Source of the DNA: Candidatus Eiseniibacteriota bacterium
GTDB taxonomy: Bacteria; Eisenbacteria; RBG-16-71-46; CAZAMP01
Direction: 5' to 3'
DNA length: 64,000 nucleotides
NCBI GenBank assembly: GCA_965224245.1
Contig: OZ245046.1
Location: 704,001-768,000 of the forward strand
Shown: positions 32,302 through 51,234 of the stretch, one piece after another
Layout of the letters: every line of letters starts with the position of its first letter
Position numbering within the stretch: position 1 is the first letter of the stretch
Notes under the pieces: model-generated
Told to the model about the DNA's origin: nothing
Database searches by the model: none
The model's input: only the letters and a program-made list of their open reading frames with translations
Position numbers and translations under genes: made by a program

Positions 32302-32636
32302 CGGCGGGTTCTACGCCATCACGCGTCGCGATGCCAGAACGAACGCTCGGTCGGGGAGTGGCGTGCGCATAGTCTCTTCCACGGCAGGCGCATACGCTGC
32401 CATGGGGTGGGCGGGGACGGCGTGTATCGGTTGCTCTCAACCGGGAGATCGCCGCCACGCGACGTGGGACGGCCGCGGTGGACGCGTCGTCCTCGATGTC
32501 GCACCTGAAACCGCGACACACACCGCATGCGGCAAGCTGGTAGAATGTACACCTGGAACACTGGAATGTCGCACCGTCGAAACGTGGGCGGGGGTGCGAC
32601 GACTCGGAAGGAGTCCCCCATCTCTGGAGAGCAAAC

Positions 32637-34895
32637 ATGAACGGTCGGCCCCTCGTTCGTTTCCTCGTGCTGTTCGGCGTCGCGGCCGCAGCAACGGCAG
32701 CGCCGGCGTTGGCCGGCGGGGAAACACAATCTGTCGCGCGTCAATGGAACGAGCGCCTGCTCGAAGCGATCCGCGTCGACTTCGCGCGTCCCACAGTTCA
32801 CGCACGCAACCTGTTTCACACGTCGGTGGCCATGTACGACGCCTGGGCGGCGTACGACGACGTCGCGGTTCCGTGGTTTCTGGGACGCTGGCGCGGGAGC
32901 TATTTCTGTGAGTTCGACGGCGTGCCCGAGCCCGTGGACGTGCAGGCGGCCCGCGAGGAGGCGATCTCGTACGCGACCTACCGGCTGCTGAAGCACCGGT
33001 TCGCCGACTCGCCGGGGGCCGACCGCTCGGTGCCCCAGATCGATTCGCTCTTCGTCGCACTGGGCTACGACTCGCTCTACACCGCGACCGACTACACCGG
33101 CGGCGACGCGGCGGCGCTCGGCAACTACATCGCCGAGAAGCTCATCGACTTCGGTTACCAGGACGGCTCGAACGAGCTGAACGGCTACGAGAACCAGTAC
33201 TACGAGCCGGTGAACGAGCCGCTTCTGCCCGAGCTCCCCGGCAATCCCGACATGGAGTTCCCGAACCGCTGGCAGCCGCTCGGGTTCGACGTGTTCATCG
33301 ACCAGTCCGGGAATCCGATCGCGGACACGGTGCCGCCGTTCCTGAGCCCCGAGTGGGGACAGGTGGTGCCGTTCTCGCTGGACGAGGAGCACCTCACGAT
33401 CTTCCACCGGGACGGGTTCGACTACTGGGTCTACTACGATCCGGGCTTTCCGCCGCCCCTGTTGCCGGTCGGGTACTTCACGCCGCACTACCAGTGGAAC
33501 CACACGCTGGTCGCGATCTGGTCGTCGCACCTCGATCCCGCGGACGGCGTGATGTGGGACATCTCGCCCGCGTCGATCGGCAACATCCAGTACTACCCGA
33601 CCGATCGTGAGGAGCATCCGGACTTCTACGACCTGTACGAGGGCGGTGACCCCGGCATCGGCTGGGATCTGAACCCGGTCACCGGCGAGCCGTACGAGCC
33701 GCAGATCGTCCCGCGGGCCGACTACGCGCGCTGCCTCGCCGAGTTCTGGGCCGACGGACCGAAGTCGGAGACGCCGCCCGGCCATTGGTTCACGATCCTG
33801 AACTACGTAAACGATCATCCGCTGTTCGAGAAGCGCTTCAAGGGCGAGGGCGCGATCCTCGACGAGCTCGAGTGGGACGTGAAGGCGTACTTCATCCTCG
33901 GCGGCACGATGCACGACTGCGCGGTGACCGCATGGGGCATCAAGGGCTGGTACGACTACGTACGTCCGATCTCGGCCATCCGCTACATGAACGAGGTCGG
34001 GCAGTGCACCGATCCCGGTCAGGCGCGGTACGACCTGGCCGGCATGCCGCTCCACCCCGGGTTCGTCGAGGTCGTGGAGGTCGGAGATCCGCTGGCGTCT
34101 GATCCCGAGGCCATCGGTCGCCTGAAGCTCTTCGCGTGGAAGGGACCGGAGTTCATCGAGGACCCGGAGACGGATGTGGCCGGCGTGGACTGGATCCTGG
34201 CCGACAACTGGTGGCCGTATCAGCGACCCACGTTCGTGACGCCACCGTTCGCCGGGTACGTTTCGGGGCACTCGACGTTCTCGCGCGCGGCCGCCGAGGT
34301 CATGACGCTGTTGACCGGCGACGAGTTCTTCCCGGGCGGCATGGGTGAGTTCTTCTGCCCGCAGAACGAGTTCCTGGTCTTCGAGGACGGACCGAGCGTG
34401 GACCTGACGCTCCAGTGGGCCACGTATCGCGACGCATCCGATCAGACCAGCCTGTCGCGGATCTGGGGCGGCATCCACCCGCCGGCCGACGACATTCCGG
34501 GCCGGCTGATCGGCATCGAGCTCGGGCCCGACGCGTTCCACTACGCGGAGGCGTACTTCAACGGCAGTGCGGTCTCAGTGGGGGACGGGAGCGCGCCGAC
34601 GCCGCGTTTCGTCGCCCGGAACGCGCCGAACCCGTTCAACCCGAGGACCACGGTCCGCTACTCGGTGCCCGAGGCGGCCGACATCACGCTCGTCGTGCAC
34701 GACGCGCAGGGTCGCGAGGTGGCGACGCTGGTCACCGGGCCCCGGGACGCCGGGATGCACCAGGTGGTGTGGGACGGCCGGAGCAGCGACGGCCTGAAGG
34801 TCGCCAGCGGCACGTACTTCCTCCAGATGACCGCGGTGACGGCGGCCACCGGTCAGGAGTTCGTCACGTCCGGCAAGATGGTGATGATCAAGTAA
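32637..34895 (+). CDS. Secreted vanadium-dependent haloperoxidase-like (PAP2 superfamily) protein with FlgD-Ig C-terminal domain
   Basis: Signal peptide; ARQWNE, KGWYDYVRP, PPFAGYVSGHS, SRIWGGIH; PNPFNP..WDG..SGTYF. Confidence 0.85.
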   Translation: MNGRPLVRFLVLFGVAAAATAAPALAGGETQSVARQWNERLLEAIRVDFARPTVHARNLFHTSVAMYDAWAAYDDVAVPWFLGRWRGSYFCEFDGVPEPVDVQAAREEAISYATYRLLKHRFADSPGADRSVPQIDSLFVALGYDSLYTATDYTGGDAAALGNYIAEKLIDFGYQDGSNELNGYENQYYEPVNEPLLPELPGNPDMEFPNRWQPLGFDVFIDQSGNPIADTVPPFLSPEWGQVVPFSLDEEHLTIFHRDGFDYWVYYDPGFPPPLLPVGYFTPHYQWNHTLVAIWSSHLDPADGVMWDISPASIGNIQYYPTDREEHPDFYDLYEGGDPGIGWDLNPVTGEPYEPQIVPRADYARCLAEFWADGPKSETPPGHWFTILNYVNDHPLFEKRFKGEGAILDELEWDVKAYFILGGTMHDCAVTAWGIKGWYDYVRPISAIRYMNEVGQCTDPGQARYDLAGMPLHPGFVEVVEVGDPLASDPEAIGRLKLFAWKGPEFIEDPETDVAGVDWILADNWWPYQRPTFVTPPFAGYVSGHSTFSRAAAEVMTLLTGDEFFPGGMGEFFCPQNEFLVFEDGPSVDLTLQWATYRDASDQTSLSRIWGGIHPPADDIPGRLIGIELGPDAFHYAEAYFNGSAVSVGDGSAPTPRFVARNAPNPFNPRTTVRYSVPEAADITLVVHDAQGREVATLVTGPRDAGMHQVVWDGRSSDGLKVASGTYFLQMTAVTAATGQEFVTSGKMVMIK

Positions 34896-35068: not shown

Positions 35069-36502
35069 CTACTCGGTGTCCCCGTGAAGTCGCGCGTGGA
35101 TCGACGGCGACATGTCCGACAGCGCCGGAGTCCGGACGGTCGCATAGTGGCAGTGGCTGCACGTCCCGCGGCGTGGATGCGGTCCCAGGATGCGTGCGAT
35201 GCCGTCACTGGCCGCCGGATCGATCTCGGCTCCGTCCGCGCCGGAGATCGCCTTCCACACGTCCTCGAAGATCCGGTGGGCCAGCTCGAGGTTGTGCACG
35301 CCCAGCTCGACCGTGATCTCGGCCAGGCGGGCCTCGGCGTGGTCGAGCGACGCGGCGGAGACACCTCGATCGCGAAGCGAGTTGATGAGCGCCTCCAGCG
35401 ACGCGCGGCGCATGCGGATGCCCTCCTGCCACCACTCGAGCACGCGATCGTAGCCATCGGGGTGACACGCGATGCACTCCGCGGCTCCCGCGCGCACCGC
35501 ATGGGCCCGCTGGGCGCCGTTCACACCATCCGGCGCGGCGCCCCGATGACACCCGCGGCAGCTCATGCCGTCGAGGAACTTGGCGCTCGGAACCGCGTTC
35601 GTCTCGTCGGCGAGCCCGAGCACGAACCGCTGGATGTCGACGTGCACCTCGTCGTGGCACGAGTGGCATCCCTCGGCCGCCTCCTCGGCCGTCAGCTCGA
35701 TCTCGTGGTCACCGGGATGACAGATCGCACAGTCGAGTGCGACCACGCCGCTCATCGCCTCGATGGCGTGTACCGGTCGCTCATGGCACCGCGTGCAGGA
35801 GAGACCCCGGTGGACGTCGTGAAGCGCCTGCCGATCCGTGGGATCGGCGGTGAGCGTCTCCAGCGGCGACGGCTGGGGACGGGGCGGCCCATCCGCATCG
35901 CTCGTCCACGGCTCCACGTGACACCCGGTGCAGCGTCGCTCGTCGACGTGGGTCTCCACGTTGGCCGCGTCGTAGTGACAGCGCGTGCACGACACCCCGA
36001 GCCGGGCGAAGCGTTCGTGCGGGATCGCGGTCCCGTCGGGCGTCAGCGAGATGTGGGTCGGTGAGATGTGGCACTCGCGACACGCGCTCGGGTCGCGACC
36101 CGATACCGCGTCCGCATGGCAGAGGTAGCACGCGTCGCTGGACCCGGGCAGCCGGACCTCACCGGGTGCGTGCACGTGGCAGTTCGCGCAGGCGGCCCCT
36201 ACGTCGAGGCCCCCGTGGCCCCGATGGCGAAACGTCACGCCGTGCCGCGTCGCGCGATAGGGGCCGCCGTCACTGTGGCATCCCGCGGCCAGACAGGCCC
36301 CGTCCGGCACCGAGGCCCGGTGCGTCGCGATCGACGTGGGACCCTCGTGACACGTCGCGCAGGCCAGCTCGACGTGACCGGACGGTGCGGACTCGCCGGC
36401 GGGCGGCCGCTCGTCGGTGCCGGCGACACAGCCGACGACACCGATCAGCCCCGCCGCCACGGCGGCGGCGGTGAGCACGCGATTCAGGAGATGAGTGCCC
36501 AT
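35069..36502 (-). CDS. Multiheme c-type cytochrome lipoprotein (13 heme motifs)
   Basis: Lipobox-like VVGC; 12 CXXCH plus 1 CX4CH (CLAAGCH). The upstream part of the track ORF is a shadow of the cytochrome b gene. Confidence 0.85.
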   Translation of the reverse strand: MGTHLLNRVLTAAAVAAGLIGVVGCVAGTDERPPAGESAPSGHVELACATCHEGPTSIATHRASVPDGACLAAGCHSDGGPYRATRHGVTFRHRGHGGLDVGAACANCHVHAPGEVRLPGSSDACYLCHADAVSGRDPSACRECHISPTHISLTPDGTAIPHERFARLGVSCTRCHYDAANVETHVDERRCTGCHVEPWTSDADGPPRPQPSPLETLTADPTDRQALHDVHRGLSCTRCHERPVHAIEAMSGVVALDCAICHPGDHEIELTAEEAAEGCHSCHDEVHVDIQRFVLGLADETNAVPSAKFLDGMSCRGCHRGAAPDGVNGAQRAHAVRAGAAECIACHPDGYDRVLEWWQEGIRMRRASLEALINSLRDRGVSAASLDHAEARLAEITVELGVHNLELAHRIFEDVWKAISGADGAEIDPAASDGIARILGPHPRRGTCSHCHYATVRTPALSDMSPSIHARLHGDTE

Positions 36503-37398
36503 AGGATCATCCCGATGACGGCCAGCCCGGAGGCCAGCGCGAGGTGACCGAAGAGCGCCGCCACGAACGTCGTGCGAGGCCCCGGTGCGGGTGCCGGCAG
36601 ATCGGGCCGCTGGTCGTCGCCCGAGGGCGGCAGGTGCGCATGACGGCGGATCGAGTCGGCGATCTCGGGGTGCTCCTCCTCCATGTAGTGCACCGTCGCC
36701 CGACCGGTGAACATGACCGCGTCCATCGGAAACTTGTCGGGGCGGAGGTGCACGTTGAAGAAGTGCACGGCGAACAGGAAGCAGATCGCGATCAGCGCCT
36801 CGTACCCGTGGAAGATCGTCGCCACGTTGAAGATCCAGCCGGGGAGGATCTGCCCGAAGAAGACCGGGAACCACAGGAGCAGGCCGGATCCGCCGATCAC
36901 GACGAACCCCCAGATCTCGCCCCAGTAGTCGAGCTTCTCCATGTAGCTGTATCGCGCGAACGCCGGACGCGGGCCGAGACCGAACATCCAGCGCCACTGC
37001 CTCACGAAGTCGACGACGTCGCGCGGCTGCGGCACCAGCGAGTCGGGCCCCCACAACAATGCCTTCCGGCTGGGCGCCCGCGCGATCTGCAGCCCCACGT
37101 AGACGAAGTGGATCGTGCCGTAGATCAGCGTCAGCGCGCCGGCGATACGATGCAGGATGCCGGCGCGCTCCACGCCACCGATCAGGCTCATCGCGGGCGC
37201 CGCCCACGGCGCCTCGGGGAAGCGCAACGGTAGTCCGGTCGACACGAGGACGTAGAACGTCACGATCGCCAGCGCGTGTGTGATGCGATGGAATCGGTTG
37301 AACCGCCAGACATAGCCGCCGCCGCCGCGCTGGGCGGAGTCCAGCGGTGTGCGTCCCCGCTGATCGGGTCCGTGCGTCTCGGGCAGCGTGGACGTCAT
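36484..37398 (-). CDS. Cytochrome b membrane subunit (FdnI-like; CbcL b-domain-like)
   Basis: RFNRFHRITH, STGLPL, LHR, IH, YMEKLDYW, HGYEA, VHFFNVHLRP, EEEHP. Confidence 0.88.
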   Translation of the reverse strand: MTSTLPETHGPDQRGRTPLDSAQRGGGGYVWRFNRFHRITHALAIVTFYVLVSTGLPLRFPEAPWAAPAMSLIGGVERAGILHRIAGALTLIYGTIHFVYVGLQIARAPSRKALLWGPDSLVPQPRDVVDFVRQWRWMFGLGPRPAFARYSYMEKLDYWGEIWGFVVIGGSGLLLWFPVFFGQILPGWIFNVATIFHGYEALIAICFLFAVHFFNVHLRPDKFPMDAVMFTGRATVHYMEEEHPEIADSIRRHAHLPPSGDDQRPDLPAPAPGPRTTFVAALFGHLALASGLAVIGMILWALIS

Positions 37399-38642
37399 GA
37401 CTCCGATCCTCCCGAAGGCAGGTCGCCCGGCGTCTCATGGGCGCCGCGCCGTGCGCGCTCGATGGCGGCCAGGCCGCGCCGGCGCTGGATCATGATCCGG
37501 ATCCACCACACGAGCGTGTGAAGACCGAACACGCCGAGCACGCCGATCAGGAGCACGTTCATGAACACGTAGCTCACGAAGAGCTGCGGGTTCTTGTCGA
37601 AGCTCCTCGGATCGGGATGTGCCTCGAACGCGACGAAGCTCGGTCGGGCCTCGGCGTGGCAGCGGCCGCACGTCGCGACCAGGCGGTCGGGGTGTACGCG
37701 CGAGCCCTCCACGCCGGCGGGCAGGATGTCGTGTGCGCCGTGGCAGTCCGAGCACACCGCCGCCTCGCGGGATCGGAGTCGAGCCGCCTTCGTGTGATAC
37801 GTGTCTCCCGACGTGGCGCCATACTCGGCGTGGCACGCGGCGCAGCGATCGATCTCGTACACGCGGAATCCGTCGTCGCCGGGGCCTCGCATCGGATGCG
37901 CCAGATGGCAGCCGGTGCACGCCGGGGCCGTGTCGGTGGTCGCCGTCAGGTCGGTCACGCCGATCTCGCCCGCGAGCACGGCCTGTCCGTGCACGTCGCG
38001 CCGCCACGTCGCGGCCAGCGAGTCGTGACACGCGCCGCAGGTCTCGACCTGGCGCGCCGGCGAGATCCGGGCCAGCGCGTCGTCGGCCCGCCGGATCGTG
38101 TGCGCCCCGTGGCACTCGTGACATGCGGCCTTCCCGCGGTGCGGATCGGCGTGTCCCGTGGCCGCGGGCGACTCCCGGTGACAGCCGGCGCACGTCGCGT
38201 CGGCGATCAGGCGGTCCTCGTCGGATCCAAGGCGCGCGATCGGCATCACGTCGTGCACGCCGTGACAGCTCTCACAGCTCGCGGCACCCCGGCCGTGGAT
38301 GCTCTCGCTCCAGCCCTCGGCCTCGGAGTCGTGGCAGTCCGCGCAGCTCGGGCGGTCCGGTAGGGGGCGCGCGTGCGGATAGTCGTCGATGCCCTCGTGA
38401 CAGTCGGCGCAGGTGACGTCGGCGTGCACGGATCGAGCGCGCGCCAGCGGGTCCACGTAGTGCCCGCGCGCGGCCGGCCACGACCCGATGCGCGTGGCCA
38501 GGAGCTCGGCGTCGCCGTGACACCGGAGGCAGTCGTCGTCGCCGTTGGACGCGGCGGCCGGCCACGGCGACGGTGCGGTCGCGAGCGCAACGGCGAGCCC
38601 GAGGGCGATTGCGCGTGCTGATGGGGTGGTGGTGCGGCTCAT
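37395..38642 (-). CDS. Periplasmic 11-heme cytochrome c with C-terminal TM helix (CbcL c-domain-like)
   Basis: Signal peptide; 11 CXXCH; FMNVLLIGVLGVFGLHTLVWWIR; ATGA overlaps at both ends. Confidence 0.85.
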   Translation of the reverse strand: MSRTTTPSARAIALGLAVALATAPSPWPAAASNGDDDCLRCHGDAELLATRIGSWPAARGHYVDPLARARSVHADVTCADCHEGIDDYPHARPLPDRPSCADCHDSEAEGWSESIHGRGAASCESCHGVHDVMPIARLGSDEDRLIADATCAGCHRESPAATGHADPHRGKAACHECHGAHTIRRADDALARISPARQVETCGACHDSLAATWRRDVHGQAVLAGEIGVTDLTATTDTAPACTGCHLAHPMRGPGDDGFRVYEIDRCAACHAEYGATSGDTYHTKAARLRSREAAVCSDCHGAHDILPAGVEGSRVHPDRLVATCGRCHAEARPSFVAFEAHPDPRSFDKNPQLFVSYVFMNVLLIGVLGVFGLHTLVWWIRIMIQRRRGLAAIERARRGAHETPGDLPSGGSES

Positions 38643-39829
38643 CGTACCCAGGCCCCCAGAGCGATCACGAGCGCCTGACAGGTGCCGTGCGCCAGAAGCG
38701 ATGCCACCCACCCGAATCGCAGGTACAGATACCCCAGAATCAGCGCCGGAGCGGTGGCCGTGGCCGCGAGAAAGCCGGCGGTGGTCGCGGCGTGCGGCAT
38801 GCCCAGCGAGAGAACGCCGGGCAGGTTCGCCAGCGTCTCGATCACCGCGGCGCCGACGATGGCCCCGATCGCGGCCAGGGCGATGGATCGTCGGCTCAGG
38901 CGCTCGAGGATCGTGGTCACGATCGCGAGCCGGAACACCACGCCCAGGATCACGACCTCTCCCACGCCGCGGACGATCGCGTGGGGCAGATCGACGCCGT
39001 CGGCGAACGTGGGGACGAAGCTCGGCGGGCCGTGGAAGAGAAGCACCGACGCGGCCATCAGGACACCCCCGGCCGCCGCCGCCATCAGTCCGACGGCGCG
39101 CATGCCCGCGTCGCCGGCCAGCGTGAGCGACGGAGGGTGCACGAGCCGCGCCCGCCGCCGCAAGCCGAGCGTGACGCCGGGCCCCACGAACCAGGTCACG
39201 ATCACGATCGCCAGGAGGACGAGCGCATCGGCCGGAAGCGAGATCCGGTTCCAGAGCACGCGCGGCCCCGGGCTCACGAGCTCGGCGATCAGGGCGATCA
39301 GCGAGAGGAGGGTGGCCGTCGCCCCGAGGCGCCACTCGGGCCAGCGCCGGAACGCGGTCACGATGGCCCGGGTTCCCTGGACCGCGGCGGTCACCGTGAC
39401 GGCGGCGGCGATGATCCATCCCGACGCGACGGCGACCGTCGGCCCCAGGGCTCCCCGCGCCCAGAGGGTCTCGGTCATGGCGACCACCCCGGCGACGCCC
39501 CAGAGCGCGGCCACCGCCGGCAGGGTGTACATCGACGAGATCCCGACGGCCGTCCACGCCTCGGGGACCGACTTCCAGTGCCGTCGTCCGACGACCCCGA
39601 GGAAGGCGCCGTGCAGGAGGCCGATCAGCGCCCCCACGAAGAACCGGACGCTGCTGTCGAGCCAGATCGCGGACGGGGTTTCGGCCGAGGCGCCGAAGAA
39701 CGCCGGCCAGACGCCGCCGACGACGATTCCGCCCGCGGACGTCCAGGAGACGACGACCGCCCCGGTCAGCCCGACCTCGCGCACCATGCGGTGCGCCGCC
39801 ATCTGGCGATGCGTGATCGTCGTGGACAT
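38639..39829 (-). CDS. Polytopic membrane protein with a degenerate CPBP-like C-terminal region
   Basis: GGAGAGG RBS; about ten hydrophobic segments; LLHGA; GEVVILGVVFR and GYLYLRFGWVASLLAHG. Confidence 0.65.
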   Translation of the reverse strand: MSTTITHRQMAAHRMVREVGLTGAVVVSWTSAGGIVVGGVWPAFFGASAETPSAIWLDSSVRFFVGALIGLLHGAFLGVVGRRHWKSVPEAWTAVGISSMYTLPAVAALWGVAGVVAMTETLWARGALGPTVAVASGWIIAAAVTVTAAVQGTRAIVTAFRRWPEWRLGATATLLSLIALIAELVSPGPRVLWNRISLPADALVLLAIVIVTWFVGPGVTLGLRRRARLVHPPSLTLAGDAGMRAVGLMAAAAGGVLMAASVLLFHGPPSFVPTFADGVDLPHAIVRGVGEVVILGVVFRLAIVTTILERLSRRSIALAAIGAIVGAAVIETLANLPGVLSLGMPHAATTAGFLAATATAPALILGYLYLRFGWVASLLAHGTCQALVIALGAWVR

Positions 39830-39876
39830 GACCTCTCCGATGTGACGAAGCCAACCACGCTATCGGCCGCCCGGGG

Positions 39877-39902
39877 TCGTGGAAAATACGGACTTTCCAC
39901 GA
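39877..39902. promoter_or_regulatory. 9-8-9 inverted repeat in the divergent promoter of the cytochrome island
   Basis: TCGTGGAAA-ATACGGAC-TTTCCACGA. Confidence 0.5.
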
Positions 39903-39953
39903 GGCGACGGTGCGTCATGATGACGGGCTTCTCGGCGACCTCCGGAGGCGGAC

Positions 39954-41282
39954 GTGGTCTTCACGACGCGGCATCCGACCGCGACGACCCTCATCGGGAC
40001 GATCGTGCTCGTTCTGGGTGCGGGGACGACCGCCCTGGTCACGCTGTCCCACCGGGAATCCTTGACCAACGATCGGTTCTGCGTCTCGTGCCATCCGTCC
40101 GACGTCCATGCGTCGCTCGGGATCGGGGGGCACGAGCTGTCCTGCGCGAGCTGTCACGCCAGCACGCGCCTGGACGCCGCGGTGCTCGGACTGGCCCGTC
40201 TCGTCGGCGCCCGCGGCATGGATGCCACGCACGGCGAGGTTCCGGACGCCGGGTGCGTCTCCTGCCACGTCGATGGACGCGAGGAGGAGGGGCTGATCGG
40301 ACGATCACCCGGCCATCTCGCCCACCTGAGGCCGCCCGCACGCGCGCGGGCGGAGGCGGGGCTCCACTGCGTGCGGTGTCACCACGCGTCGGGCAGTCGT
40401 CCGGATGCGCTGGACTGCCGGAGCTCCGGGTGTCACGAGCTCGTCCGCGATCGACTCGGCGACATGGTGCTGGAGTCCGACGTCGAGTGCATGGTCTGTC
40501 ACGAGTTCACGTCGGCCCCACACGCGCCGGCGTTCGCGGCCACCGGCGACCACCCCGCACGTCCACCCATGGACGCGCTCTTCGAGACCGGGCGGCGTCC
40601 TCACGAGGCGTGCCTCGGCTGTCACGCCGGGCAGCGCCGCACCGACGTCGCGTTCGTGGGCGACCTCGCGCACGGCGGCCTCTGCGCCGCGTGTCACGAC
40701 CCGCATCGGGACACCGACCCGGTCGACGCGTGGCGTTCGTGCGCGGGCCTCGGCTGCCACGCCAGCGCGTCGCGGGAGTCGGCCTTTCACCGGGGACTCG
40801 CCCCCGACGTGCTGCCCGACTGCTCCCGCTGCCACGAGCACCACACGTGGTTCGCGGCGGGCGGGGACTGTGCCGCCTGCCACGCTCCATCCGCCCTCGT
40901 CCCGGGAGCGGTGTTCTCGCACGCCCGGCACACCGAGCTCGGGTGCGAGCGCTGCCATCGCGGGGCCGGGGAGAGCGGGACGCATGGCGAGCTCCGCGTC
41001 TGGCAGCGGGAGGACTGCATGGCGTGCCACGCGTCACACCATCGCCCCGAGGCGTCGTGCCGGAGCTGCCATCCCGCCGCTCGCGTGGCCGGGCACACGG
41101 ACGCGGCGCACGCCGGGTGCTCGGGGACCGGTTGCCACACGACGACGGTGCTGGCGCAGCTCCGGCCCACGCGGCCGGTGTGTCTGGTGTGCCACCAGGA
41201 CCGGGTCGATCACGAGGTGGAGGACAGCTGCGTGGACTGCCACGACGTCGAGGGCTTTCCGTCGGCGGCGAGTGGAGACTAG
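39954..41282 (+). CDS. N-terminally anchored multiheme cytochrome c (17 heme motifs)
   Basis: One hydrophobic helix, then NapC-like NDRFCVSCH; 14 CXXCH plus 3 CX4CH. Confidence 0.85.
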   Translation: MVFTTRHPTATTLIGTIVLVLGAGTTALVTLSHRESLTNDRFCVSCHPSDVHASLGIGGHELSCASCHASTRLDAAVLGLARLVGARGMDATHGEVPDAGCVSCHVDGREEEGLIGRSPGHLAHLRPPARARAEAGLHCVRCHHASGSRPDALDCRSSGCHELVRDRLGDMVLESDVECMVCHEFTSAPHAPAFAATGDHPARPPMDALFETGRRPHEACLGCHAGQRRTDVAFVGDLAHGGLCAACHDPHRDTDPVDAWRSCAGLGCHASASRESAFHRGLAPDVLPDCSRCHEHHTWFAAGGDCAACHAPSALVPGAVFSHARHTELGCERCHRGAGESGTHGELRVWQREDCMACHASHHRPEASCRSCHPAARVAGHTDAAHAGCSGTGCHTTTVLAQLRPTRPVCLVCHQDRVDHEVEDSCVDCHDVEGFPSAASGD

Positions 41283-41465
41283 GTCCGGCGGCCCGCTCGG
41301 CCTTGCGCCGGCGCCCCGCGCTCGGGCTCGACGCGGTCCCGGACCGGCCCGCCGCCTCGCACGATCCCTGCTTGACCCGGCGCTCCGATCCGCGAGACAG
41401 TGTCCCACTTCGATGCCCCGGCGCCTCGTCGGAGTCCGATCCGTTCCTGAGCCAGTGGAGAGCTC

Positions 41466-43040
41466 GTGAAGCCCCAAACCCGTTTTCCATCTACGGTTTA
41501 CAACATCATCAGCCTCGTCGGCCTTGCGGTCGCGCTGTTCGGCCTGGCCGCCATCCTGATCCTGTACGTGCTCTCGTCCCTGGGGGGCTCCAACCCCTAC
41601 CTGGGGATCGTGATGCTCGTCGTGCTGCCCGCGATCATGGTCGTCGGCCTCCTCCTGATCCCCGTCGGCATGTGGCGGGAGCGGCAGCTGCGGCTCTCGG
41701 GCCGCCGCAAGGCGCTGATCATCAACGTGGCCAAGCGCGGTCACCGCAACGCGATCATCACGTTCGGGGTCGGCACCAGCATCTTCCTGTTCCTGACCAC
41801 CATCGGCATGTTCGAGACGTACGAGTTCACCGAGTCCAGCACGTTCTGCGGCGAGGTTTGCCACACGACGATGGCGCCCGAGTACACCGCGTGGCACGAG
41901 TCGCCGCACGCGCGCGTGGGGTGTGTCGACTGTCACGTGGGCGAGGGGTTCGACTGGTTCGTGAAGGCGAAGATCAGCGGCGTGCGGCAGGTCTGGCAGA
42001 TGGTCAATCGCAGCTGGCCCACGCCCATCCCCACGCCGATCCACGATCTGCGTCCCGCACGCGAGACCTGCGAGCACTGCCACTGGCCGGGCAAGTCCTA
42101 CGCATCGAAGGAGATCGTCCGCGATTACTTCCTCGGTGACGAGGCCAACACGCACTGGCGAATCCGGCTCCTGTTGCACGTGGGCGAGACGTCCACCCAG
42201 TCCGGACGGCGGGCCTGGGGCATTCACTGGCACGTGGATCCGCGCAACCGCGTCGAGTACGTGGCCGGCGACGACAAACGTCTGTCGGTCTCGCAGGTCA
42301 CCTGGTGGCAGAACGGAGAGCCGGTCGTCTACTCCGAGACCGGCCAGCCGCTCTCGCCGGACGAGATCGTGGAGGCCGAGCTCGAGGGCCGCGTGCGCAC
42401 GATGGACTGCATCGACTGCCACAATCGTCCCGCGCACGTCTACCTGCCGCCCACGCTGGCCGTGAACGGGGCGCTGTCCCACGGGGCGCTCGATCGGGAC
42501 CTGCCGTTCGCGAAGCGCGAGGCGGTCCGGGCGCTCTCGGCCGCATACGGCACCCGCGACGCCGGGCGCGACTCGATCCGGACCGTGCTCGAGCGCGTGT
42601 ACGCCGACATCGGCATCGACGTGCCCCAGAGCGCGGTGGCGGCGGTGATCGATCTCTACGAGCGAAACATGTTCCCGGAGATGGGTGTGCGCTGGAACGA
42701 GTACCCGGTGCACAACAGCCACATGGAGAGCCCGGGGTGCTTCCGGTGCCACGGCTCGAACCTGCGCAACGCGGCCGGCGAACGCATTCGCGACGACTGC
42801 GATCTCTGTCACAAGATCATCGCCCAGGGCCCGGTCGAGGACGACCACGAGTTCGGCCCGTCGCACTGGACCGGAGTCGACGAGGCCGTGACCGGCGTCG
42901 AGTTCGAGCATCCGATCTCGATCGACGGCGCACAGCGCGAGATGCGGTGCTGGGAGTGTCACTCCGGGGACGACTCGATCTATCTCGAAGGCGTCCCAAC
43001 GATTCCGAACGCGGCTCTGACCGCCGAGGTCGCGCCGTGA
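41466..43040 (+). CDS. imcH: ImcH-like NapC/NirT-family inner-membrane heptaheme cytochrome
   Basis: Three N-terminal TM helices with NPYLGI; ESSTFCGEVCH..M.PEY; CVDCH, RPARETCEHCHWP, GIHWH, MDCIDCHNRPAH, GCFRCH, CDLCH, CWECH. Confidence 0.8.
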   Translation: MKPQTRFPSTVYNIISLVGLAVALFGLAAILILYVLSSLGGSNPYLGIVMLVVLPAIMVVGLLLIPVGMWRERQLRLSGRRKALIINVAKRGHRNAIITFGVGTSIFLFLTTIGMFETYEFTESSTFCGEVCHTTMAPEYTAWHESPHARVGCVDCHVGEGFDWFVKAKISGVRQVWQMVNRSWPTPIPTPIHDLRPARETCEHCHWPGKSYASKEIVRDYFLGDEANTHWRIRLLLHVGETSTQSGRRAWGIHWHVDPRNRVEYVAGDDKRLSVSQVTWWQNGEPVVYSETGQPLSPDEIVEAELEGRVRTMDCIDCHNRPAHVYLPPTLAVNGALSHGALDRDLPFAKREAVRALSAAYGTRDAGRDSIRTVLERVYADIGIDVPQSAVAAVIDLYERNMFPEMGVRWNEYPVHNSHMESPGCFRCHGSNLRNAAGERIRDDCDLCHKIIAQGPVEDDHEFGPSHWTGVDEAVTGVEFEHPISIDGAQREMRCWECHSGDDSIYLEGVPTIPNAALTAEVAP

Positions 43041-44122
43041 GGGCTCGCCATCGTTCCCGGATCCCCGGGGTCGAGATCTCCTTCGGAGCGATCCCGGCGG
43101 GAGCGATCGTCGCGGCGACCATCCTCGTGATCGGCGCCGGGTGCGGCCCCGTCGATCACACCGCCGGTGAGGCGGCGCCCGCGGACACGCTGGCCGATCT
43201 GTCGCCGTCCGAGCGTCCCGCCGGGTCGCCGCGGATGGAGGCGCTCTTCCGATCCGCCGCGGCCGGGACGTTCGACGAGGATCCGCATCGCTTCGAGTGT
43301 GCGCGATGCCACACGGGAGAGTCCGATCCGGAGGACCGGACGCTGTGGCGATTCCGGTGCCAGACGTCGGACTGTCACCCCCGGGCATGGACGGAGACCG
43401 TCTACCACCGGCTCGCACCCTCCACGTTCACGGTCTGCGTGAACTGTCACGTGCCGCACGTGTGGACCGCGAACGGCGAGGATTGCCGATCCTGTCACGG
43501 CGACATGAACGGTCCCCGGGGATCGGTCGAGCAGCACGTCCTGGCCACGTCGAAGCACTTCGAGCACTCGCTCCACTGGGACGTGGACTGCCGCCGGTGC
43601 CACGAGACGAAGAGCCACCACGCGTCGCGCGGACCCGCGTCGTCGGCCACGTGCATGTCGTGTCACCACGGTACCCAGATGAGCGCCGACTGCTCGAGCT
43701 GCCACGACCCGGGGAGCATCGCCCCGCTGGTGACCACGCGGGTGGCGTTCGACATCGGCGGCACCGAGTACGACCGCGAGGTGTCGTTCCCGCATCCGAT
43801 CCACGTGGATCTCGAGTGCTCGGACTGCCACACGTCACGCGAGAACGTGCGTGACGTGGAGGCGTGCGTGTCCTGCCACGACTTCCATCACGACCCCGGC
43901 GCGTCGTGCGTGTCGTGTCACACGCCCCCGCCGAGCGACGCGCACGACGTCGAGGTGCACGAGGAAGCCTGCTCGTCGTGCCACGAGCGGACCGAGTTCG
44001 ACGCGGCCTCGTTGAGCCGGGAGGTCTGCCTCGTGTGCCACCGGGCGCCGCCCGATCACGACCTCGAGGACGAAGAGGCGTGCACGTCGTGTCACGACAT
44101 GCCGGAGCGGAGTCTGGACTGA
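43037..44122 (+). CDS. Multiheme cytochrome c lipoprotein (13 heme motifs)
   Basis: GTGA overlap with the imcH-like stop; lipobox-like GAGC; 12 CXXCH plus CQTSDCH; FEHSLH and FPHPIH c7/c3-like His motifs. Confidence 0.85.
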   Translation: MRARHRSRIPGVEISFGAIPAGAIVAATILVIGAGCGPVDHTAGEAAPADTLADLSPSERPAGSPRMEALFRSAAAGTFDEDPHRFECARCHTGESDPEDRTLWRFRCQTSDCHPRAWTETVYHRLAPSTFTVCVNCHVPHVWTANGEDCRSCHGDMNGPRGSVEQHVLATSKHFEHSLHWDVDCRRCHETKSHHASRGPASSATCMSCHHGTQMSADCSSCHDPGSIAPLVTTRVAFDIGGTEYDREVSFPHPIHVDLECSDCHTSRENVRDVEACVSCHDFHHDPGASCVSCHTPPPSDAHDVEVHEEACSSCHERTEFDAASLSREVCLVCHRAPPDHDLEDEEACTSCHDMPERSLD

Positions 44123-44170: not shown

Positions 44171-46147
44171 CTAGCGCACCCGCACGATCCGCTCGCTGGT
44201 GACGGCCCGATCCGCCTCGAGCGTCACGTAGTACACGCCCGGCGCCGCCGGATGCCCGTCCTCGCCGAGGCCGTCCCACGCGAGCCGGAGCGTCCCCACG
44301 TCGATCGGCCCGCGGTGAACCGTGGCCACTTGCCGTCCCGTCGTGTCGTAGAGCCGCACCGTCGCGTCGTCGTACGGGCGACCGCTCCGGAGCTCGATCG
44401 AGACCACGCCCGCCGAGGGCTGGGGCGCCACCCGCGTCACCCGTGCGGTGACCGCCGATGCGACGTCGGGCGTCCCGACCGCGGTGACCTCCTCGTGCCA
44501 GTCGAGGATCCAGTTGTCGGGATCGAACACGATCGCCGTCGGCGTTCCGGTCAGGACGTCGAGCGTGAAGACCTGATACGGTGCGTCGTTCCAGATCGTG
44601 AATCGCTCGGTGCCCGAGGTCGTGACCACGTCGACCTCGATCGGCATCGTGAACAGGTTGGACTGCTGCTGATCGAGGGTCAGGACCACGTCGCCGGCTC
44701 CGTCGACCGTATACGCATACTGGTAGTCGGGACGACCGGGTCCGTAGATCCACTCGTCGAAGAAGTACGACAGATCCTGTCCGCTCCGCGACTCCATCAC
44801 GGCCTGGAGATCCTCGGTGGTCGCATGGGAGTACGCGTGCGCCGCGCGGTAGTCCAGAACGCCGGCCCAGAAGTCGTCCTCACCCAAGACGCCGCGCAGC
44901 ATGTGCACGACCCATGCGCCCTTGCGATACACGACGCCCGAGAAGATCTCCCATGGGTTCGTCAGGTCGTAGCGATACACTGGTGTGTCGAAGCCGTCGG
45001 GATCGTCGATCCAGTCCATGTAGTCCGCGTAGCCCCCGGGCACCTGGGATCCGTACCAGACGCCCTCCGACCAGGTCGCGAACCCCTCGTTGAGCCAGAT
45101 GTGCCCCCAGTCGGCGCACGTGACGAGATCGCCCCACCACTGATGTGCCAGCTCGTGCGCGATGATGAGCTCCGAGCCGACGCAGCAGGAGCCCATGGAC
45201 GTCATCGTCTGGTGCTCCATCGCGCCGCCGAACGGAAACTCCACCATCCCGTAGCGTTCGGCCAGGAACGGGTACTCGCCGAACACGGTCCGGTAGAGCT
45301 CGATCTGCTCGGCCACGACCGGCCACGAGGAGAGCGATTCGCTCTCGTCCTCGGGGTACACGTAGTACTCGAGCGGCATCTCGGTGCCGTCGCCCGCGAC
45401 GTAGATGTCCGTCCAGGTCGTGAAGTTCGTGACGGTCGCCGCGATCAGATACGTCGCGATCGGATAGTCGGTGTGGTGCCGGTACGTCTTCGTGGCGCCG
45501 TCGTCGTCGACGCCGACGAGGAGACCGTTCGAGACGGCGACGTACTCGGACGGCACGGTGATCGCGACGTCACACGTGGCCTTGTCGGTCGGGGTCTCCT
45601 TGCACGGCCACCACGTGCGGGCGAACCAGGGCTCGCTCAGTGATGCCGCCAGCGGCGTGCCCGCGTGCGTGTCGAAGACGAAGCTCTGGAGGCCTTCCTC
45701 GGGCGGCGTGCCGTTGTACGCGATCGTGATCGCGAACGCGTCGTCCTCGCTCATCGCGGCGTCGAGGGTGATCGACACGCGGTGATCGGCGCGCGTGAAG
45801 GTGAGGGGAGTGCCGTCGTGATCGATGGACGTGATCGTCAGATCGTCATGAAGATCGATCGGCACCGACAGGAGGTTCGGGATCAGGCTGACCGCCGAGA
45901 TCGTACAGGCCCCGTCCACCGTGTGCGCGTCGAGGTCGATCGCGAGATCGAGATCGTAGTGCTGCACGTCGAACGTGGTGACGGGCGGCGGAGGCCCCAG
46001 CACCGCGGCTCGGAGACGCTCGGACTTGATGGCGCTACAGCCCTGCGAGGGATCGAGATCAGCAAGGCTCGGCACCTCGGCGCGTGCGGCGACCGCCGCG
46101 ATCAGGAGAACCGTCGAGAGCATGGGGAAGGCGCGCGAGACGCACAT
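44171..46147 (-). CDS. Secreted M1-family aminopeptidase with FlgD/T9SS-like C-terminal domain
   Basis: GGAMEH, HELAHQWWG, WLNEGFAT, VYRKG; PQP..WDG..PGVYYV. Confidence 0.9.
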   Translation of the reverse strand: MCVSRAFPMLSTVLLIAAVAARAEVPSLADLDPSQGCSAIKSERLRAAVLGPPPPVTTFDVQHYDLDLAIDLDAHTVDGACTISAVSLIPNLLSVPIDLHDDLTITSIDHDGTPLTFTRADHRVSITLDAAMSEDDAFAITIAYNGTPPEEGLQSFVFDTHAGTPLAASLSEPWFARTWWPCKETPTDKATCDVAITVPSEYVAVSNGLLVGVDDDGATKTYRHHTDYPIATYLIAATVTNFTTWTDIYVAGDGTEMPLEYYVYPEDESESLSSWPVVAEQIELYRTVFGEYPFLAERYGMVEFPFGGAMEHQTMTSMGSCCVGSELIIAHELAHQWWGDLVTCADWGHIWLNEGFATWSEGVWYGSQVPGGYADYMDWIDDPDGFDTPVYRYDLTNPWEIFSGVVYRKGAWVVHMLRGVLGEDDFWAGVLDYRAAHAYSHATTEDLQAVMESRSGQDLSYFFDEWIYGPGRPDYQYAYTVDGAGDVVLTLDQQQSNLFTMPIEVDVVTTSGTERFTIWNDAPYQVFTLDVLTGTPTAIVFDPDNWILDWHEEVTAVGTPDVASAVTARVTRVAPQPSAGVVSIELRSGRPYDDATVRLYDTTGRQVATVHRGPIDVGTLRLAWDGLGEDGHPAAPGVYYVTLEADRAVTSERIVRVR

Positions 46148-46407
46148 GGCGCAACTCCTCGAGGAGGCAGGGGGGGATGTCCGGCGAGAATCGCCAACGG
46201 AACCCTCCACGATGCGCCGGGCGGGTCGAGCGCCGCAATCGTGGGTTCCCCGTATGTACGGGGATTCCACGATTCAACCGGACCGGCACCCATCTAGAAT
46301 GATCGGTCGAATTGTGGTCGCCGCTGCTCGCATCCGCACTCGCGGGTCGGCGTCGCGCCGATCCCGGCTGTGGGCGCAATGGATCGACTCCAGACCGGGA
46401 GGAGCTC

Positions 46408-48642
46408 ATGGGGTCCCTCGCTCGCCTGCCGCGCCCGGTGCTCCACGCCGCCACCGGCGTCGCGTGCGGTATCGTGGTCACGTTCGTCACACCCGGGACC
46501 GCGTCCGCCGACGGCGCCTGCTTCAACTACCTCGAGAGCCTCCGTTGGTCGGTCGCGGATGCCTCTCTCGGCTACGTGGAAGAGACGGCACTCGTCGGAG
46601 ACCGGCTCTACGCGCTGAGCACGTATCCCACGGTGCTGCACGTTCTCGACGTCGGCGATCCGGACGCGCCGGTCGAGCTGGGGTCGCTCGGGCTCGCCGG
46701 CGAAGGAGAGGCGGACTACCGGCTCCACGTCGATGGATCTCTCGTCTACGTCCCGCGTCCGACCGGCCTCTGGATCGTGGACGTGTCGGATCCCACCGAC
46801 CCGACCCTGCGGGGACAGGTCACGACCGGCGCCCCGGCCTACGACGTGACGGTCGTGGCCAGCCATGCTTACGTGTCCTACGGCCACTCCGCCACATCGC
46901 TCGGACTCGGGGTCGTGGACGTCTCCGATCCCGACGCCCCCACGCTCGTCACGGAGCTCGAGCGCCCGGCGTGGTCTCCGGTCCTCGCGGTGAGTGGCTA
47001 CGTCGTCGTTGCGAAGGACGAGGGCCTCGACGTGCTGGATGTCTCCGATCCGAGCGCGCCGACGCCCGCCGAGACCTGGGCGCTGGGAGGCCCCGCCGTC
47101 GACCTCGACGTCCGGAACGGGCGCCTGTACGCCGTGGCGAACACCGAGCTGACCGTGCTCGACGTGACCACCCCGACGACGCTGAGCTTCGTCGCGTCGT
47201 TCGACGTCGAGCTTCCGGTGTCGCGACTCGCCGTGGACGACACCAGCGCGTACGTGATCGTCGATCACGGAATGGTGTACGCCAGCCGGCTCGTGATCGT
47301 CGGTCTCCTGGGAGGCCCCCACGCGGTGGGCGCGATCGCGGCGCCCGACTACGCGAACGGCGTCACCGTCGGCTCCGAGCGGGCCTACGTCGGCGGCCAG
47401 GATGCGGGACTCCTCGTCGCCGATCTCCGGTACCCGGGCACCGCGCCGAAGGTGGGCCACCTGGCGACCGCGTTTCCGGTCGCGGACGTGGTCGTCGCGC
47501 ACCCGTACGCCTACGTGGCCGGCGGCTTCGGGGGTGGGCTGGGTGTGATCGACATCTCCACGCCCACCGCGCCCACCGCGGTGGGCAACCTGACGACGCT
47601 GGGGACCGCGATCCGGGTGGCCGTATCGGGACCGATCGCGGCGCTGTCCGACGACCAGACGTTGCGCATCGTCGACGTCTCGGCTCCGGCGAGCCCGACC
47701 GAGATGGGGTCGGTTGCGCTGCCCTCCACCGCACGAGGCTCGGAGTTCGACGGCGGCATCGTGTTCGTGGCCGCCGACGACGCGGGGCTTCAGGTCGTCG
47801 ACGCCTCGACCCCCGAGGCGCCGTCGATCTGCGCGTCGATCGCGTCACCCGATGGCGCCTACGACGTCGCACTCCACGGCAACTACGTCTACCTGGCCAC
47901 CGAGGCCCGCACGCTGATGGTGGTGGACGTAACCGATCCCTGCATGCCGGCGCTCGTGACGAGCGTTCCCACGCCGGGCTATGCGTACGTCGTGCACGTC
48001 CTCGGCGACCGGGCGTACGTCGGCGACTCGACCGGCCTGACGATCTTCGACCTGACCGACCCGGCAGCGCCGAAGCTCGAGAGCTCGCTGGCCACCGGGG
48101 CTGTCTGGGGCATCCAGGTCCGGGGGTGGTACGCCTACCTGATCGGCCCCACCGGGATGCGGGTCGCGTACGTGGCCGACGAGATGAGCCCGGCGCTGAT
48201 GGGCGGGGTGACGTCGAACGCGTTCGCACGTGGCGTCGGGGTGACGGACACACACGTGTTCGTGGCCGACCAGGGTGACGGCCTCGCCGTCTACGAGATC
48301 GAGTGCGAGGGTGTGGTGCCGATCCTGGAGCCCGCGGACCATCCATCGCTCACACCCGCGCGCACGTGGCTCGGCACCGCGGCGCCGAACCCGTTCAACC
48401 CCATCACGCGGATCGCGTTCGCGGTGCGAGACCGCGATCCACTGAGCCTCGCGATCTACGACACGGCGGGCCGCCTGGTGCGACGTCTAGCAGATGGGCG
48501 TTCGCTCGCGCCCGGCACCTACGACGCACGGTGGGACGGACGGGACGACGCCGGTCGCGCGGCCCCGAGCGGGACGTACGTCGTCCGGCTCTGGACGCGG
48601 CGAGGGATCGACGAGCATCGGAAGATCTCGCTGATCCGGTGA
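46408..48642 (+). CDS. LVIVD-repeat protein with FlgD-Ig C-terminal domain
   Basis: GGAGGAG RBS; repeated L.[IV]VDVSDP..P units; PNPFNP..WDG..SGTYVVRL. Confidence 0.85.
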   Translation: MGSLARLPRPVLHAATGVACGIVVTFVTPGTASADGACFNYLESLRWSVADASLGYVEETALVGDRLYALSTYPTVLHVLDVGDPDAPVELGSLGLAGEGEADYRLHVDGSLVYVPRPTGLWIVDVSDPTDPTLRGQVTTGAPAYDVTVVASHAYVSYGHSATSLGLGVVDVSDPDAPTLVTELERPAWSPVLAVSGYVVVAKDEGLDVLDVSDPSAPTPAETWALGGPAVDLDVRNGRLYAVANTELTVLDVTTPTTLSFVASFDVELPVSRLAVDDTSAYVIVDHGMVYASRLVIVGLLGGPHAVGAIAAPDYANGVTVGSERAYVGGQDAGLLVADLRYPGTAPKVGHLATAFPVADVVVAHPYAYVAGGFGGGLGVIDISTPTAPTAVGNLTTLGTAIRVAVSGPIAALSDDQTLRIVDVSAPASPTEMGSVALPSTARGSEFDGGIVFVAADDAGLQVVDASTPEAPSICASIASPDGAYDVALHGNYVYLATEARTLMVVDVTDPCMPALVTSVPTPGYAYVVHVLGDRAYVGDSTGLTIFDLTDPAAPKLESSLATGAVWGIQVRGWYAYLIGPTGMRVAYVADEMSPALMGGVTSNAFARGVGVTDTHVFVADQGDGLAVYEIECEGVVPILEPADHPSLTPARTWLGTAAPNPFNPITRIAFAVRDRDPLSLAIYDTAGRLVRRLADGRSLAPGTYDARWDGRDDAGRAAPSGTYVVRLWTRRGIDEHRKISLIR

Positions 48643-50349: not shown

Positions 50350-51234
50350 ATGGATCTACTCGTCACGAGCTTCAGGGATGAATGGAACGGTCTCATCCGG
50401 CTCCTGCCGAGGTTGCTGGTGGCGGCGGGCGTGTTCGTGGTCATCGCGTGGGGCGGACGCGCCGCCACGCGTCCGCTTCTCCGCCTGCTCGGCCGGAGCC
50501 AGCTCCGCGCGATCCACCTCGGGTTCATCCGGAACGTCATGCGGTGGATCTTCGCGCTCCTGGGGCTGGTGGTGGCCCTGAACGTGCTGGGCCTCCGGGG
50601 TGTCGCCGGGAGCCTGCTGGCCGGCGGGGGCGTGACCGCGATCGTCGTCGGGTTCGCGTTTCGCGCCGTGGTCGAGAACTTCCTGGCCGGGCTGTTCCTG
50701 GTCATGGGGCGCTCGTTCAAGGTGGGAGATCTGATCGCGTCCGGCGACTTCGAGGGCGTCGTTCGGGGCATCGAGCTCCGGCACACCCACATCCGCACCG
50801 TCGACGGCCGGGACGTCTTCATCCCCAGCATCGAGCTCTTCACCAAGCCGCTGGTCAACTACACGCTGGACGGCCTGCGCCGGCTCTCGTTCCGGGTGGG
50901 CATCGACTATCGCGACGACGTCGAGCGGGCGCGGCAGCTCCTCCTGGACGCGGTGATGCGCTCGGGCTTCGTGCTCACCGACCCGGTGCCGCTGGTCACG
51001 ATCGGTGAGCTGGCCACGAACGCGGTGGTCCTGCAGGTGTCGTACTGGATCGACACGTTCGATCCGGCCCCACCCGGGATCTCGGTGCCGAGCGAGCTGA
51101 TGGATCGCTGTCGCCGGGTGATCCTGGAGAACGGGTTCACGATCAGCTCCGAGGTGAGCACGGCGATCGTCTTCGGTGAGGGAGCCCCGGTCGGCGTGCG
51201 GCTCGAGCGCGAGGATGCCCCGAGATCCGGGTGA
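50350..51234 (+). CDS. MscS-family small-conductance mechanosensitive channel
   Basis: GFAFR..VENFLAG, FKVGDLI, EGVV..IELRHT, TVDG, VGIDY. Confidence 0.9.
   Translation: MDLLVTSFRDEWNGLIRLLPRLLVAAGVFVVIAWGGRAATRPLLRLLGRSQLRAIHLGFIRNVMRWIFALLGLVVALNVLGLRGVAGSLLAGGGVTAIVVGFAFRAVVENFLAGLFLVMGRSFKVGDLIASGDFEGVVRGIELRHTHIRTVDGRDVFIPSIELFTKPLVNYTLDGLRRLSFRVGIDYRDDVERARQLLLDAVMRSGFVLTDPVPLVTIGELATNAVVLQVSYWIDTFDPAPPGISVPSELMDRCRRVILENGFTISSEVSTAIVFGEGAPVGVRLEREDAPRSG

Follow-up and report, generated by a model that had tools for sequence, protein, structure and literature searches.

Two cytochrome modules predicted to oxidise quinol, one of the ImcH type and one of the CbcL type, stand back to back in an island of a Candidatus Eiseniibacteriota genome, at positions 35069-44122 of the 64,000-nucleotide stretch of DNA that was analysed as a whole and is called here the window. 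The island consists of two divergent operons with seven genes, named A to G: the plus arm (E, F, G) contains the ImcH-type protein F between two haem-dense cytochromes, and the minus arm (D, C, B, A) contains a CbcL-type cytochrome distributed over two polypeptides, C and B, followed by a further haem-dense cytochrome, A. We consider it reasonably probable (about 0.6) that the two modules, side by side, link the (mena)quinol pool to long chains of c-type haems in the periplasm. Extracellular respiration has its best-studied entry points in ImcH and CbcL, and what is known about them comes almost entirely from Geobacter, where the two genes are unlinked.

A motif scan of the island proteins gave 61 haem-c motifs: 13 in A (12 CXXCH and one CX4CH), 11 in C (all CXXCH), 17 in E (14 CXXCH and three CX4CH), seven in F (six CXXCH and one CX3CH) and 13 in G (12 CXXCH and one CX4CH), the non-canonical sites of the island thus being one CX3CH and five CX4CH. 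The initial annotation, which was made from the DNA letters, had described two divergent operons with 13+11 and 17+7+13 motifs plus a cytochrome b, each arm ending in a gene for a 13-haem protein (A in the minus arm, G in the plus arm), and all of this was reproduced; it had overlooked D, the first gene of the minus operon. When each protein was shuffled 2000 times with its composition preserved, the mean number of motifs was 0.33, 0.22, 0.73, 0.05 and 0.52 for A, C, E, F and G, with maxima of 3, 3, 6, 2 and 5, respectively, and the observed counts far exceed this chance level. All the cysteines of C, E and F lie within motifs (34 out of 34 in E), and the sole exceptions in the other two proteins are Cys25 of A and Cys36 of G, both in a lipobox-like context; because nearly all cysteines fall in motifs, the CX3CH and CX4CH sites are also supported as haem sites. 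The histidines of A, C, E, F and G number 37, 28, 42, 23 and 32, and bis-His ligation would therefore be possible for every haem. The haems are dense, with one per 28 residues in G and one per 26 in E.

The homologues of ImcH have been defined by three transmembrane (TM) helices, an atypical CX3CH motif beside the membrane domain and six CXXCH motifs (PMC6295460). A Kyte-Doolittle hydropathy scan, used here instead of TMHMM, gave three peaks in F, at residues 14-32, 47-65 and 97-115, to be compared with the helices 13-35, 45-67 and 100-122 tabulated for GSU3259 (PMC6295460 Table S3). The motif CGEVCH is found at residue 128 and the CXXCH motifs at 153, 202, 315, 425, 445 and 495, with a spacing that parallels that of GSU3259, so F resembles this ImcH in its three N-terminal TM helices, in a CX3CH adjoining TM3, in six CXXCH and in its size (524 versus 507 amino acids). 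The ImcH of Geomonas oryzae (Geobacteraceae), taken as reference from locus L073 of a scan of species-representative genomes, has 507 amino acids and matches GSU3259 of Table S3 in length and motif spacing; in the same table the proteins of the Geobacter group measure 495-519 amino acids. F aligned with the Geomonas protein over its full length, with 37.5% identity in 509 columns and an E value of 1.9e-125, and this identity falls inside the range of 31.5-49% published for ImcH homologues outside Geobacter (PMC6295460). Conserved residues of ImcH have been reported as E127, K173 and Y188, plus the haem-1 ligands H137 and Q179 (10.1101/2023.05.03.539133), and four of these five are kept in F (E127, H137, K173 and Q179 as E123, H133, K169 and Q175). 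Judged by its full-length homology and its defining motifs, F is a member of the ImcH family. Among the curated models F reached the cut-off of the Pfam NapC/NirT family PF03264 (35.3 bits), and its score with the NrfH model (50.6 bits) was below the cut-off of 134.2. Of 8000 candidates that were scored, at least 4999 proved to be relatives at E<=0.001, the nearest among the matches listed being 62% identical, and no match to sequences in the PDB was obtained at E<=0.01. The nearest named homologue, with 46-47% identity, is labelled Eisenbacteria, a name that NCBI places under candidate phyla, outside the Fibrobacteres-Chlorobi-Bacteroidetes (FCB) group. F differs from ImcH in having Trp in place of Y188 and in the position of its gene, which has a large multihaem gene on either side and diverges from a CbcL-type operon; in Geomonas oryzae, by contrast, no CbcL-type gene was found within 10 kb of the imcH gene.

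The second module is split. The only match of B at E<=0.001 in the Geomonas oryzae genome (45% identity, E 1.8e-63) lies in a 616-amino acid protein with nine CXXCH motifs at the exact positions given for GSU0274, the CbcL of Geobacter, in Table S2 of PMC6295460. C aligned with residues 30-328 of this Geomonas CbcL (31% identity over 322 columns, E 2e-38) and B with residues 344-612 (42% identity over 279 columns, E 3e-69), and since they match consecutive parts of the same protein, C and B together correspond to one CbcL-type cytochrome. The split falls in the loop after TM1, between CbcL residues ~328 and ~344, and the helices, one in C (residues 354-372) and five in B, add up to six on two polypeptides. 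The candidate ligands of the b-type haems in CbcL are one His each in TM1, TM2 and TM3 and two in TM5 (10.1101/2021.04.15.440034); all five align in the island, the TM1 His on C, and the TM2, TM3 and both TM5 His on B. In the CbcL/MtrH/MtoC family a c domain with 3-23 CXXCH is fused in one polypeptide to a six-TM b domain of the HydC/FdnI type (PMC6295460). C has the features of the N-terminal multihaem domain, i.e., a signal peptide and 11 CXXCH, and C and B depart from the family description in that they are not fused. B stayed below the cut-offs of both Pfam PF01292 (prokaryotic cytochrome b561; 29.0 bits, cut-off 30.1) and the FdnI models (30 bits, cut-offs 115.85 and 341). No PDB sequence matched B at E<=1.

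A tree of the b domain (50 rows, with a midpoint root used only for drawing and three long branches flagged) placed B in a clade, with support 100/97, together with the Geomonas CbcL, the fused copy from the genome of the window, and forms from other phyla, some of them fused and others split; fused forms of about 630-900 amino acids made up a second clade. In the tree a fused form (G083) and a split form (G022) of the same phylum are sisters, which argues that C and B are a split member of the CbcL family rather than a separate family; likewise, the pairing of C with B follows from homologues in which both parts are fused. On these grounds C and B are a CbcL-family cytochrome split after TM1. 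With CbcL GSU0274 they share the order of a periplasmic multihaem c domain and a six-helix b domain (42-45% identity to the Geomonas protein in the b part and 31% in the c part), and they differ from it in consisting of two polypeptides, in having 11 haem motifs instead of 9, and in being flanked by a CPBP-like gene upstream and a gene for a putative 13-haem lipoprotein downstream. A resemblance exists also to CbcBA (GSU0593-0594 region), in which a separate b subunit is joined by a multihaem c subunit whose C-terminal TM helix supplies a His (10.1101/2021.04.15.440034). CbcB, however, is described in the same source as having four TM helices and no sequence homology to CbcL, while B has five and is plainly CbcL-like, so membership of CbcBA was rejected; moreover, the island lacks the sigma-54 regulator and BccR-like genes that go with CbcBA.

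The placement of an ImcH-like and a CbcL-like module back to back, as the initial annotation had it, is therefore borne out by full-length homology to the Geomonas oryzae orthologues, by the defining motifs and by the CbcL clade. A concern raised at the same time was that the proteins might group with subunits of formate dehydrogenase, hydrogenase or nitrite reductase. The identification of the island as accessory subunits of formate dehydrogenase, hydrogenase or Nrf enzymes was rejected: none of the seven proteins reached a curated cut-off for such families, and neither the island nor its flanks contain a gene for a catalytic subunit.

The features of the island are collected in Table 1. Since the G+C content of the window is 65-73%, many long spurious frames are present, and the gene calls were settled by third-position G+C and by start-codon context. 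Within the operons consecutive genes overlap at the D/C (ATGA), C/B (ATGA), B/A (19 nt) and F/G (GTGA) junctions, and the operons are translationally coupled.

Table 1. Genes and intergenic element of the island (positions in the window).
Feature	Positions	Strand	Description
D	38639-39829	-	396-aa (amino acid) polytopic membrane protein that opens the minus operon; weak resemblance to CPBP/Rce1
C	37395-38642	-	415 aa; c subunit of split CbcL-family cytochrome; signal peptide, 11 CXXCH, one C-terminal TM
B	36484-37398	-	304-aa b-type cytochrome subunit, 5 TM; membrane part of split CbcL
A	35069-36502	-	477-aa 13-haem putative lipoprotein; helical region precedes last haem
Inverted repeat TCGTGGAAA-N8-TTTCCACGA	39877-39902	none	perfect 9-nt arms; D/E intergenic
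E	39954-41282	+	442-aa 17-haem cytochrome; one N-terminal hydrophobic helix; paralogue of G
F	41466-43040	+	524-aa ImcH-family quinol dehydrogenase; 3 TM, CX3CH and 6 CXXCH
G	43037-44122	+	361-aa 13-haem putative lipoprotein; GTG start inside F stop overlap

The three partner cytochromes A, E and G matched only generic c3, c7 and MtrC-domain families of Pfam (c7 and c3 in the case of E). E and G are paralogues (31% identity, E 3e-16), and A is weakly related to G. In the PDB, nothing beyond weak c7, c3 or NrfB-type matches was obtained with A, C, E and G, the best with an E value of 7e-4, and A, E and G have no close solved relative. An AlphaFold2 model of G built from a 30-row alignment was poor (mean predicted local distance difference test score, pLDDT, 62.9; predicted template-modelling score, pTM, 0.36), and Foldseek with this model returned nothing from the PDB at E<=0.001, the top entry, the dodecahaem cytochrome GSU1996, being not significant (E 0.24). 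The cysteines outside the haem motifs lie in the contexts LIGVVGC (Cys25 of A) and VIGAGC (Cys36 of G), and both fit the PROSITE-style pattern that we take to be the criterion of a lipobox; this Cys is kept in both of the nearest A-like partners (G022 and G083). At E<=1e-30, 15 clusters of G homologues were obtained. Most close homologues (P0123-P0128 and P0132-P0134) bear an extra N-terminal CXXC pair with no His following, absent from G; it could form a disulphide, bind a metal or represent a degenerate haem site. As for the A-like proteins of related genomes, they match generic c3, c7 and MtrC-domain families only, and no catalytic family. In the same phylum, loci L124, L125 and L127-L131 encode proteins of ~600 amino acids and 18 haems that combine an anchor of the NapC/NrfH type with an A-like domain in one fused chain; in six of the eight such loci examined a gene for an 8-9-haem protein is directly upstream, and CbcL-type genes are often on the same contig.

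D is supported as a gene by its third-position G+C content (0.91) and contains many hydrophobic segments. No Pfam family matched it even at E 0.1, and the NCBIfam model CPBP_JDVT_MrtJ gave 17.5 bits, with a cut-off of 75. Among atlas clusters the best match to D has a score of 0.93, and PF02517 is present in 13% of its members, which points weakly to the CPBP/Rce1-like family. In the other loci compared, no D homologue was found beside CbcL-type genes.

Taken together, the two arms could work as follows. F, of the NapC/NirT superfamily, would by analogy with Geobacter ImcH oxidise quinol at its first haem (with His/Gln ligands), delivering electrons and protons to the periplasm, and would pass the electrons along its seven haems to periplasmic partners, of which the flanking paralogues E, with its membrane helix, and G, a probable lipoprotein, may be the acceptors. 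In the other arm the C-B complex would oxidise quinol through its b-type haems and feed the 11-haem domain of C, and the TM1 His of C may be among the ligands proposed for the b-haems of B; the electrons would then be handed to the probable 13-haem lipoprotein A. D is co-translated with C, B and A. Co-transcription with F or with C and B makes E, G and A the obvious acceptors, and their haem density suggests that they may form wires. Formation of the C-B complex, the direction from quinol to the outside, the use of extracellular or insoluble acceptors and the lipidation of A and G are all predicted features, and the export of electrons to outside acceptors is plausible. The ImcH of Geobacter is reported to reduce the Ppc cytochromes and to be electroneutral (10.1101/2023.05.03.539133), and ImcH, CbcL, CbcBA and CymA have been counted with the best markers for putative extracellular electron transfer (PMC12977616). 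The genome of the window contains 37 open frames with at least four CXXCH, and around C1:448-451 kb there are frames with 16 and 26 haem motifs.

Several results weigh against this picture. The residue Y188 of ImcH is replaced in F by W184, and the lipobox Cys of G is kept in only three of 11 close homologue clusters. No MtrB/PioB-type barrel (PF11854) was found in the 97.4%-complete genome, other barrel types having not been searched systematically; the sensitivity of this search is itself unproven, because 14 control genomes also gave nothing above the cut-off. Likewise, neither the L066 barrel nor the 16-haem partners from G022 and G083 gave a tblastn match in the genome at E<=1e-3. The genome also encodes a second ImcH and a fused CbcL that score better than F and C/B against the Geomonas proteins (see below), and relatives of CbcL, MtrH and MtoC occur in Fe(II) oxidisers as well (PMC6295460), so the direction of electron flow is not fixed by the family.

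The missing outer-membrane conduit leaves room for a periplasmic distribution hub in the style of CymA or NapC/NrfH, in which quinol electrons would be delivered to soluble or periplasmic acceptors, or to detoxifying enzymes encoded elsewhere, and none would cross the outer membrane. F belongs to the NapC/NirT superfamily (with the scores for PF03264 and NrfH given above), and A-like domains in the same phylum are mostly fused to NapC-type anchors in families largely devoid of ImcH, both of which fit such a hub. On the other hand, no reductase gene lies in or adjoins the island, the three haem-dense partners, with 43 haems, would exceed what a one-enzyme shuttle needs, and locus L066, which has the same divergent layout, carries a putative beta-barrel gene between its multihaem genes; we therefore regard the hub as unlikely.

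Flow in the opposite sense was considered too, with electrons from Fe(II), reduced humics, a partner cell or a cathode reducing quinone, as has been proposed for MtoC. Homologues of CbcL, MtrH and MtoC in Fe(II)-oxidising bacteria have been proposed to be bidirectional, but ImcH homologues have so far been implicated in quinol oxidation only, according to PMC6295460, from which both statements come. Furthermore, mtoAB-like genes were not found in the genome, and B groups with the Geomonas CbcL clade, in a tree that contains no MtoC sequence. Inward flow is accordingly very improbable, and we return to the two modules as routes out of the quinol pool.

The recurrence of the arrangement was surveyed on the loci of the 80 best of 589 confirmed ImcH relatives in species-representative genomes, where a CbcL-type b domain was called linked if it matched at E<1e-15 within the fetched flank of 10 kb or less. 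Such a domain was linked in 32 of the 80 loci, within 300 bp in 20; it was on the same strand in 31 of the 32 and upstream in 26, and among the 48 loci without a CbcL-type gene, the flanks extended for 3 kb or more to either side in 30. These counts are given without statistics because related loci are not independent. The linked loci come from Ignavibacteriota, Bacteroidota, Latescibacterota, KSB1, Zixibacteria, Omnitrophota, Verrucomicrobiota, Calditrichota and other phyla. At several of them, in Ignavibacteriota, Bacteroidota and other phyla (L013, L026, L053, L056, L080, L066, L034, L065 and L071), each b-domain clade is represented beside ImcH, one by a fused CbcL-type protein of ~630-900 amino acids and the other by a 19-haem form, split or fused (~925 amino acids). 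The divergent layout was present in only one of the 32 linked loci, L066, from a Bacteroidota metagenome-assembled genome (MAG), where a split CbcL-type pair, a fused CbcL-type gene, the putative beta-barrel gene and further multihaem genes face the imcH gene. The barrel candidate, at L066:2260-3537 on the minus strand, is a non-haem protein of 425 amino acids that has a signal peptide and weakly matches an LptD-type barrel (E 2e-4); it lies between multihaem genes and may be an outer-membrane pore.

Within the phylum, in 201 genomes all of one class and including that of the window, relatives of F were present in 43, of B in 104, of A in 64 and of G in 8; the A-like matches are mostly in families largely without ImcH. 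Among the nearest ImcH loci, G004, G028 and G008 have a 13-haem homologue of G downstream of ImcH (37-41% identical), and at G051, G100 and G135 a fused or CbcL-like gene adjoins ImcH. The other arm occurs in G022 as a C-like gene, a split B-like gene (46%), a 21-haem A/G-like lipoprotein gene and a 16-haem gene, and in G083 as a fused CbcL of 735 amino acids (49% in the B part) followed by an A-like lipoprotein gene and a 16-haem gene; neither genome has an F homologue at E<=1e-20. The only other sampled genome of the family of the window also lacks F. Since each arm occurs alone as well, the island is a juxtaposition of two modules. Conservation of the arrangement across relatives, proposed earlier as a check, was found in part: the linkage of ImcH and CbcL recurs, and the exact seven-gene layout was seen only here, with no second instance among the genomes searched. 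The genome itself holds an unlinked second ImcH (C1:1422705-1424267, with seven motifs; 40.4% identity to the Geomonas ImcH, E 1.6e-145), and near it there are one 4-haem gene and 11-haem genes. It also holds a fused 19-haem CbcL in a 991-amino acid frame (C1:1128438-1131413; 40.7% identity over 614 columns, E 5e-132) followed by an 8-haem gene. As these two outscore F and C/B against the Geomonas proteins, the island is perhaps an accessory set.

The two operons diverge from a shared D/E intergenic region of 124 bp, in whose A+T-richer patch lies the inverted repeat TCGTGGAAA-N8-TTTCCACGA. It occurs just once in the 6.9-Mb genome, where relaxing the pattern to GGAAA-N8-TTTCC brought up no further copy, and is a candidate shared operator or RNA hairpin. 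A consensus scan of the region gave no sigma-70-like promoter, a scan that is uninformative, and two terminator-like sites against a shuffle mean of 1.3 are uninformative too. Geobacter requires ImcH at potentials above about -0.1 V and CbcL at this value or lower (PMC5322298), which makes it conceivable that the arms are a co-regulated pair, the ImcH arm serving high-potential and the CbcL arm low-potential acceptors, switched from this shared region with its genome-unique palindrome; the linkage of the two families in 32 of 80 loci agrees with this. Yet cbcL is constitutive in Geobacter and CbcL itself is regulated by redox potential, as reported in the preprint 10.1101/2022.08.31.506072, so that linkage is unnecessary for switching. 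Each arm moreover occurs alone in relatives (G022 and G083 without F), the genome has a second copy of each family, and no regulator gene is encoded in the island or beside it, as judged from family searches of the island and its flanks. A switch of this kind is thus doubtful, and the side-by-side coupling of both modules to the quinol pool remains our reading.

Rather improbable in our estimation, although of wider reach, is the idea that ImcH-type and CbcL-type proteins outside Geobacter constitute a linked 'dual-entry' respiratory unit in many phyla; here both would be driven from one 124-bp region through the genome-unique palindromic operator, the potential-dependent branching of Geobacter would be hard-wired as a single regulated locus, and splitting CbcL so that the c subunit bears a ligand of a b-haem would be a route of assembly that recurs.

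The end of each arm is abutted by a convergent, unrelated gene. The products encoded in the flanks include CysRS, an EamA transporter, an M1 peptidase and secreted proteins with FlgD_ig tails; the family searches of island and flank proteins found no catalytic reductase gene in the island or the adjoining flanks. Further away in the window, at 21749-26317 and about 9 kb from the island, lies what resembles a Psr/Phs-like reductase locus equipped with a quinol anchor of its own; the genes there encode an ArsR-type regulator, a molybdopterin oxidoreductase, an NrfD-type membrane subunit and a sulphur-transport protein. At 7938-10107 a small multihaem frame (four CXXCH) overlaps or abuts a beta-propeller protein with NHL/SGL repeats. 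A FlgD_ig domain ends five large secreted proteins, at 5454-7898, 32544-34895, 44171-46273, 46303-48642 and 51180-54047 (lamin-tail-domain (LTD), vanadium-haloperoxidase-like, M1 peptidase, LVIVD-repeat and M23/HYR proteins), and, being common to all of them, is probably a sorting tail.

The proposal of the initial annotation that the island is an undescribed system was overstated. Both families are widespread, with ImcH in 12 and CbcL in 15 phyla (PMC6295460); they are linked in 32 of 80 loci, the arms also occur alone, and second copies exist in the genome. In the Geobacteraceae MAG GWB2_52_12 the ImcH and CbcL homologues are even near neighbours, tagged A2X80_11560 and A2X80_11570 (PMC6295460 Tables S2 and S3). 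No mention of imcH and cbcL homologues as neighbours, or of a split CbcL, was found in the literature, in a search that did not extend to the figures of PMC6295460 (of which 5 and 7 may show neighbours) or to the bioRxiv supplements. What is new here is that a split CbcL is paired divergently with ImcH and that either arm has a 13-haem partner to itself; the island does not amount to an undescribed system and reveals no new mechanism. What it offers is a compact, well-delimited example of the pairing from a little-known lineage of high G+C content, with dedicated multihaem partners for each arm, and the naturally split CbcL gives a handle on how b-type haems are ligated. The wider pattern may outweigh the island itself, since ImcH and CbcL are neighbours in about 40% of the sampled ImcH loci, and this pattern could sharpen the prediction of electroactive bacteria from marker genes in metagenomes.

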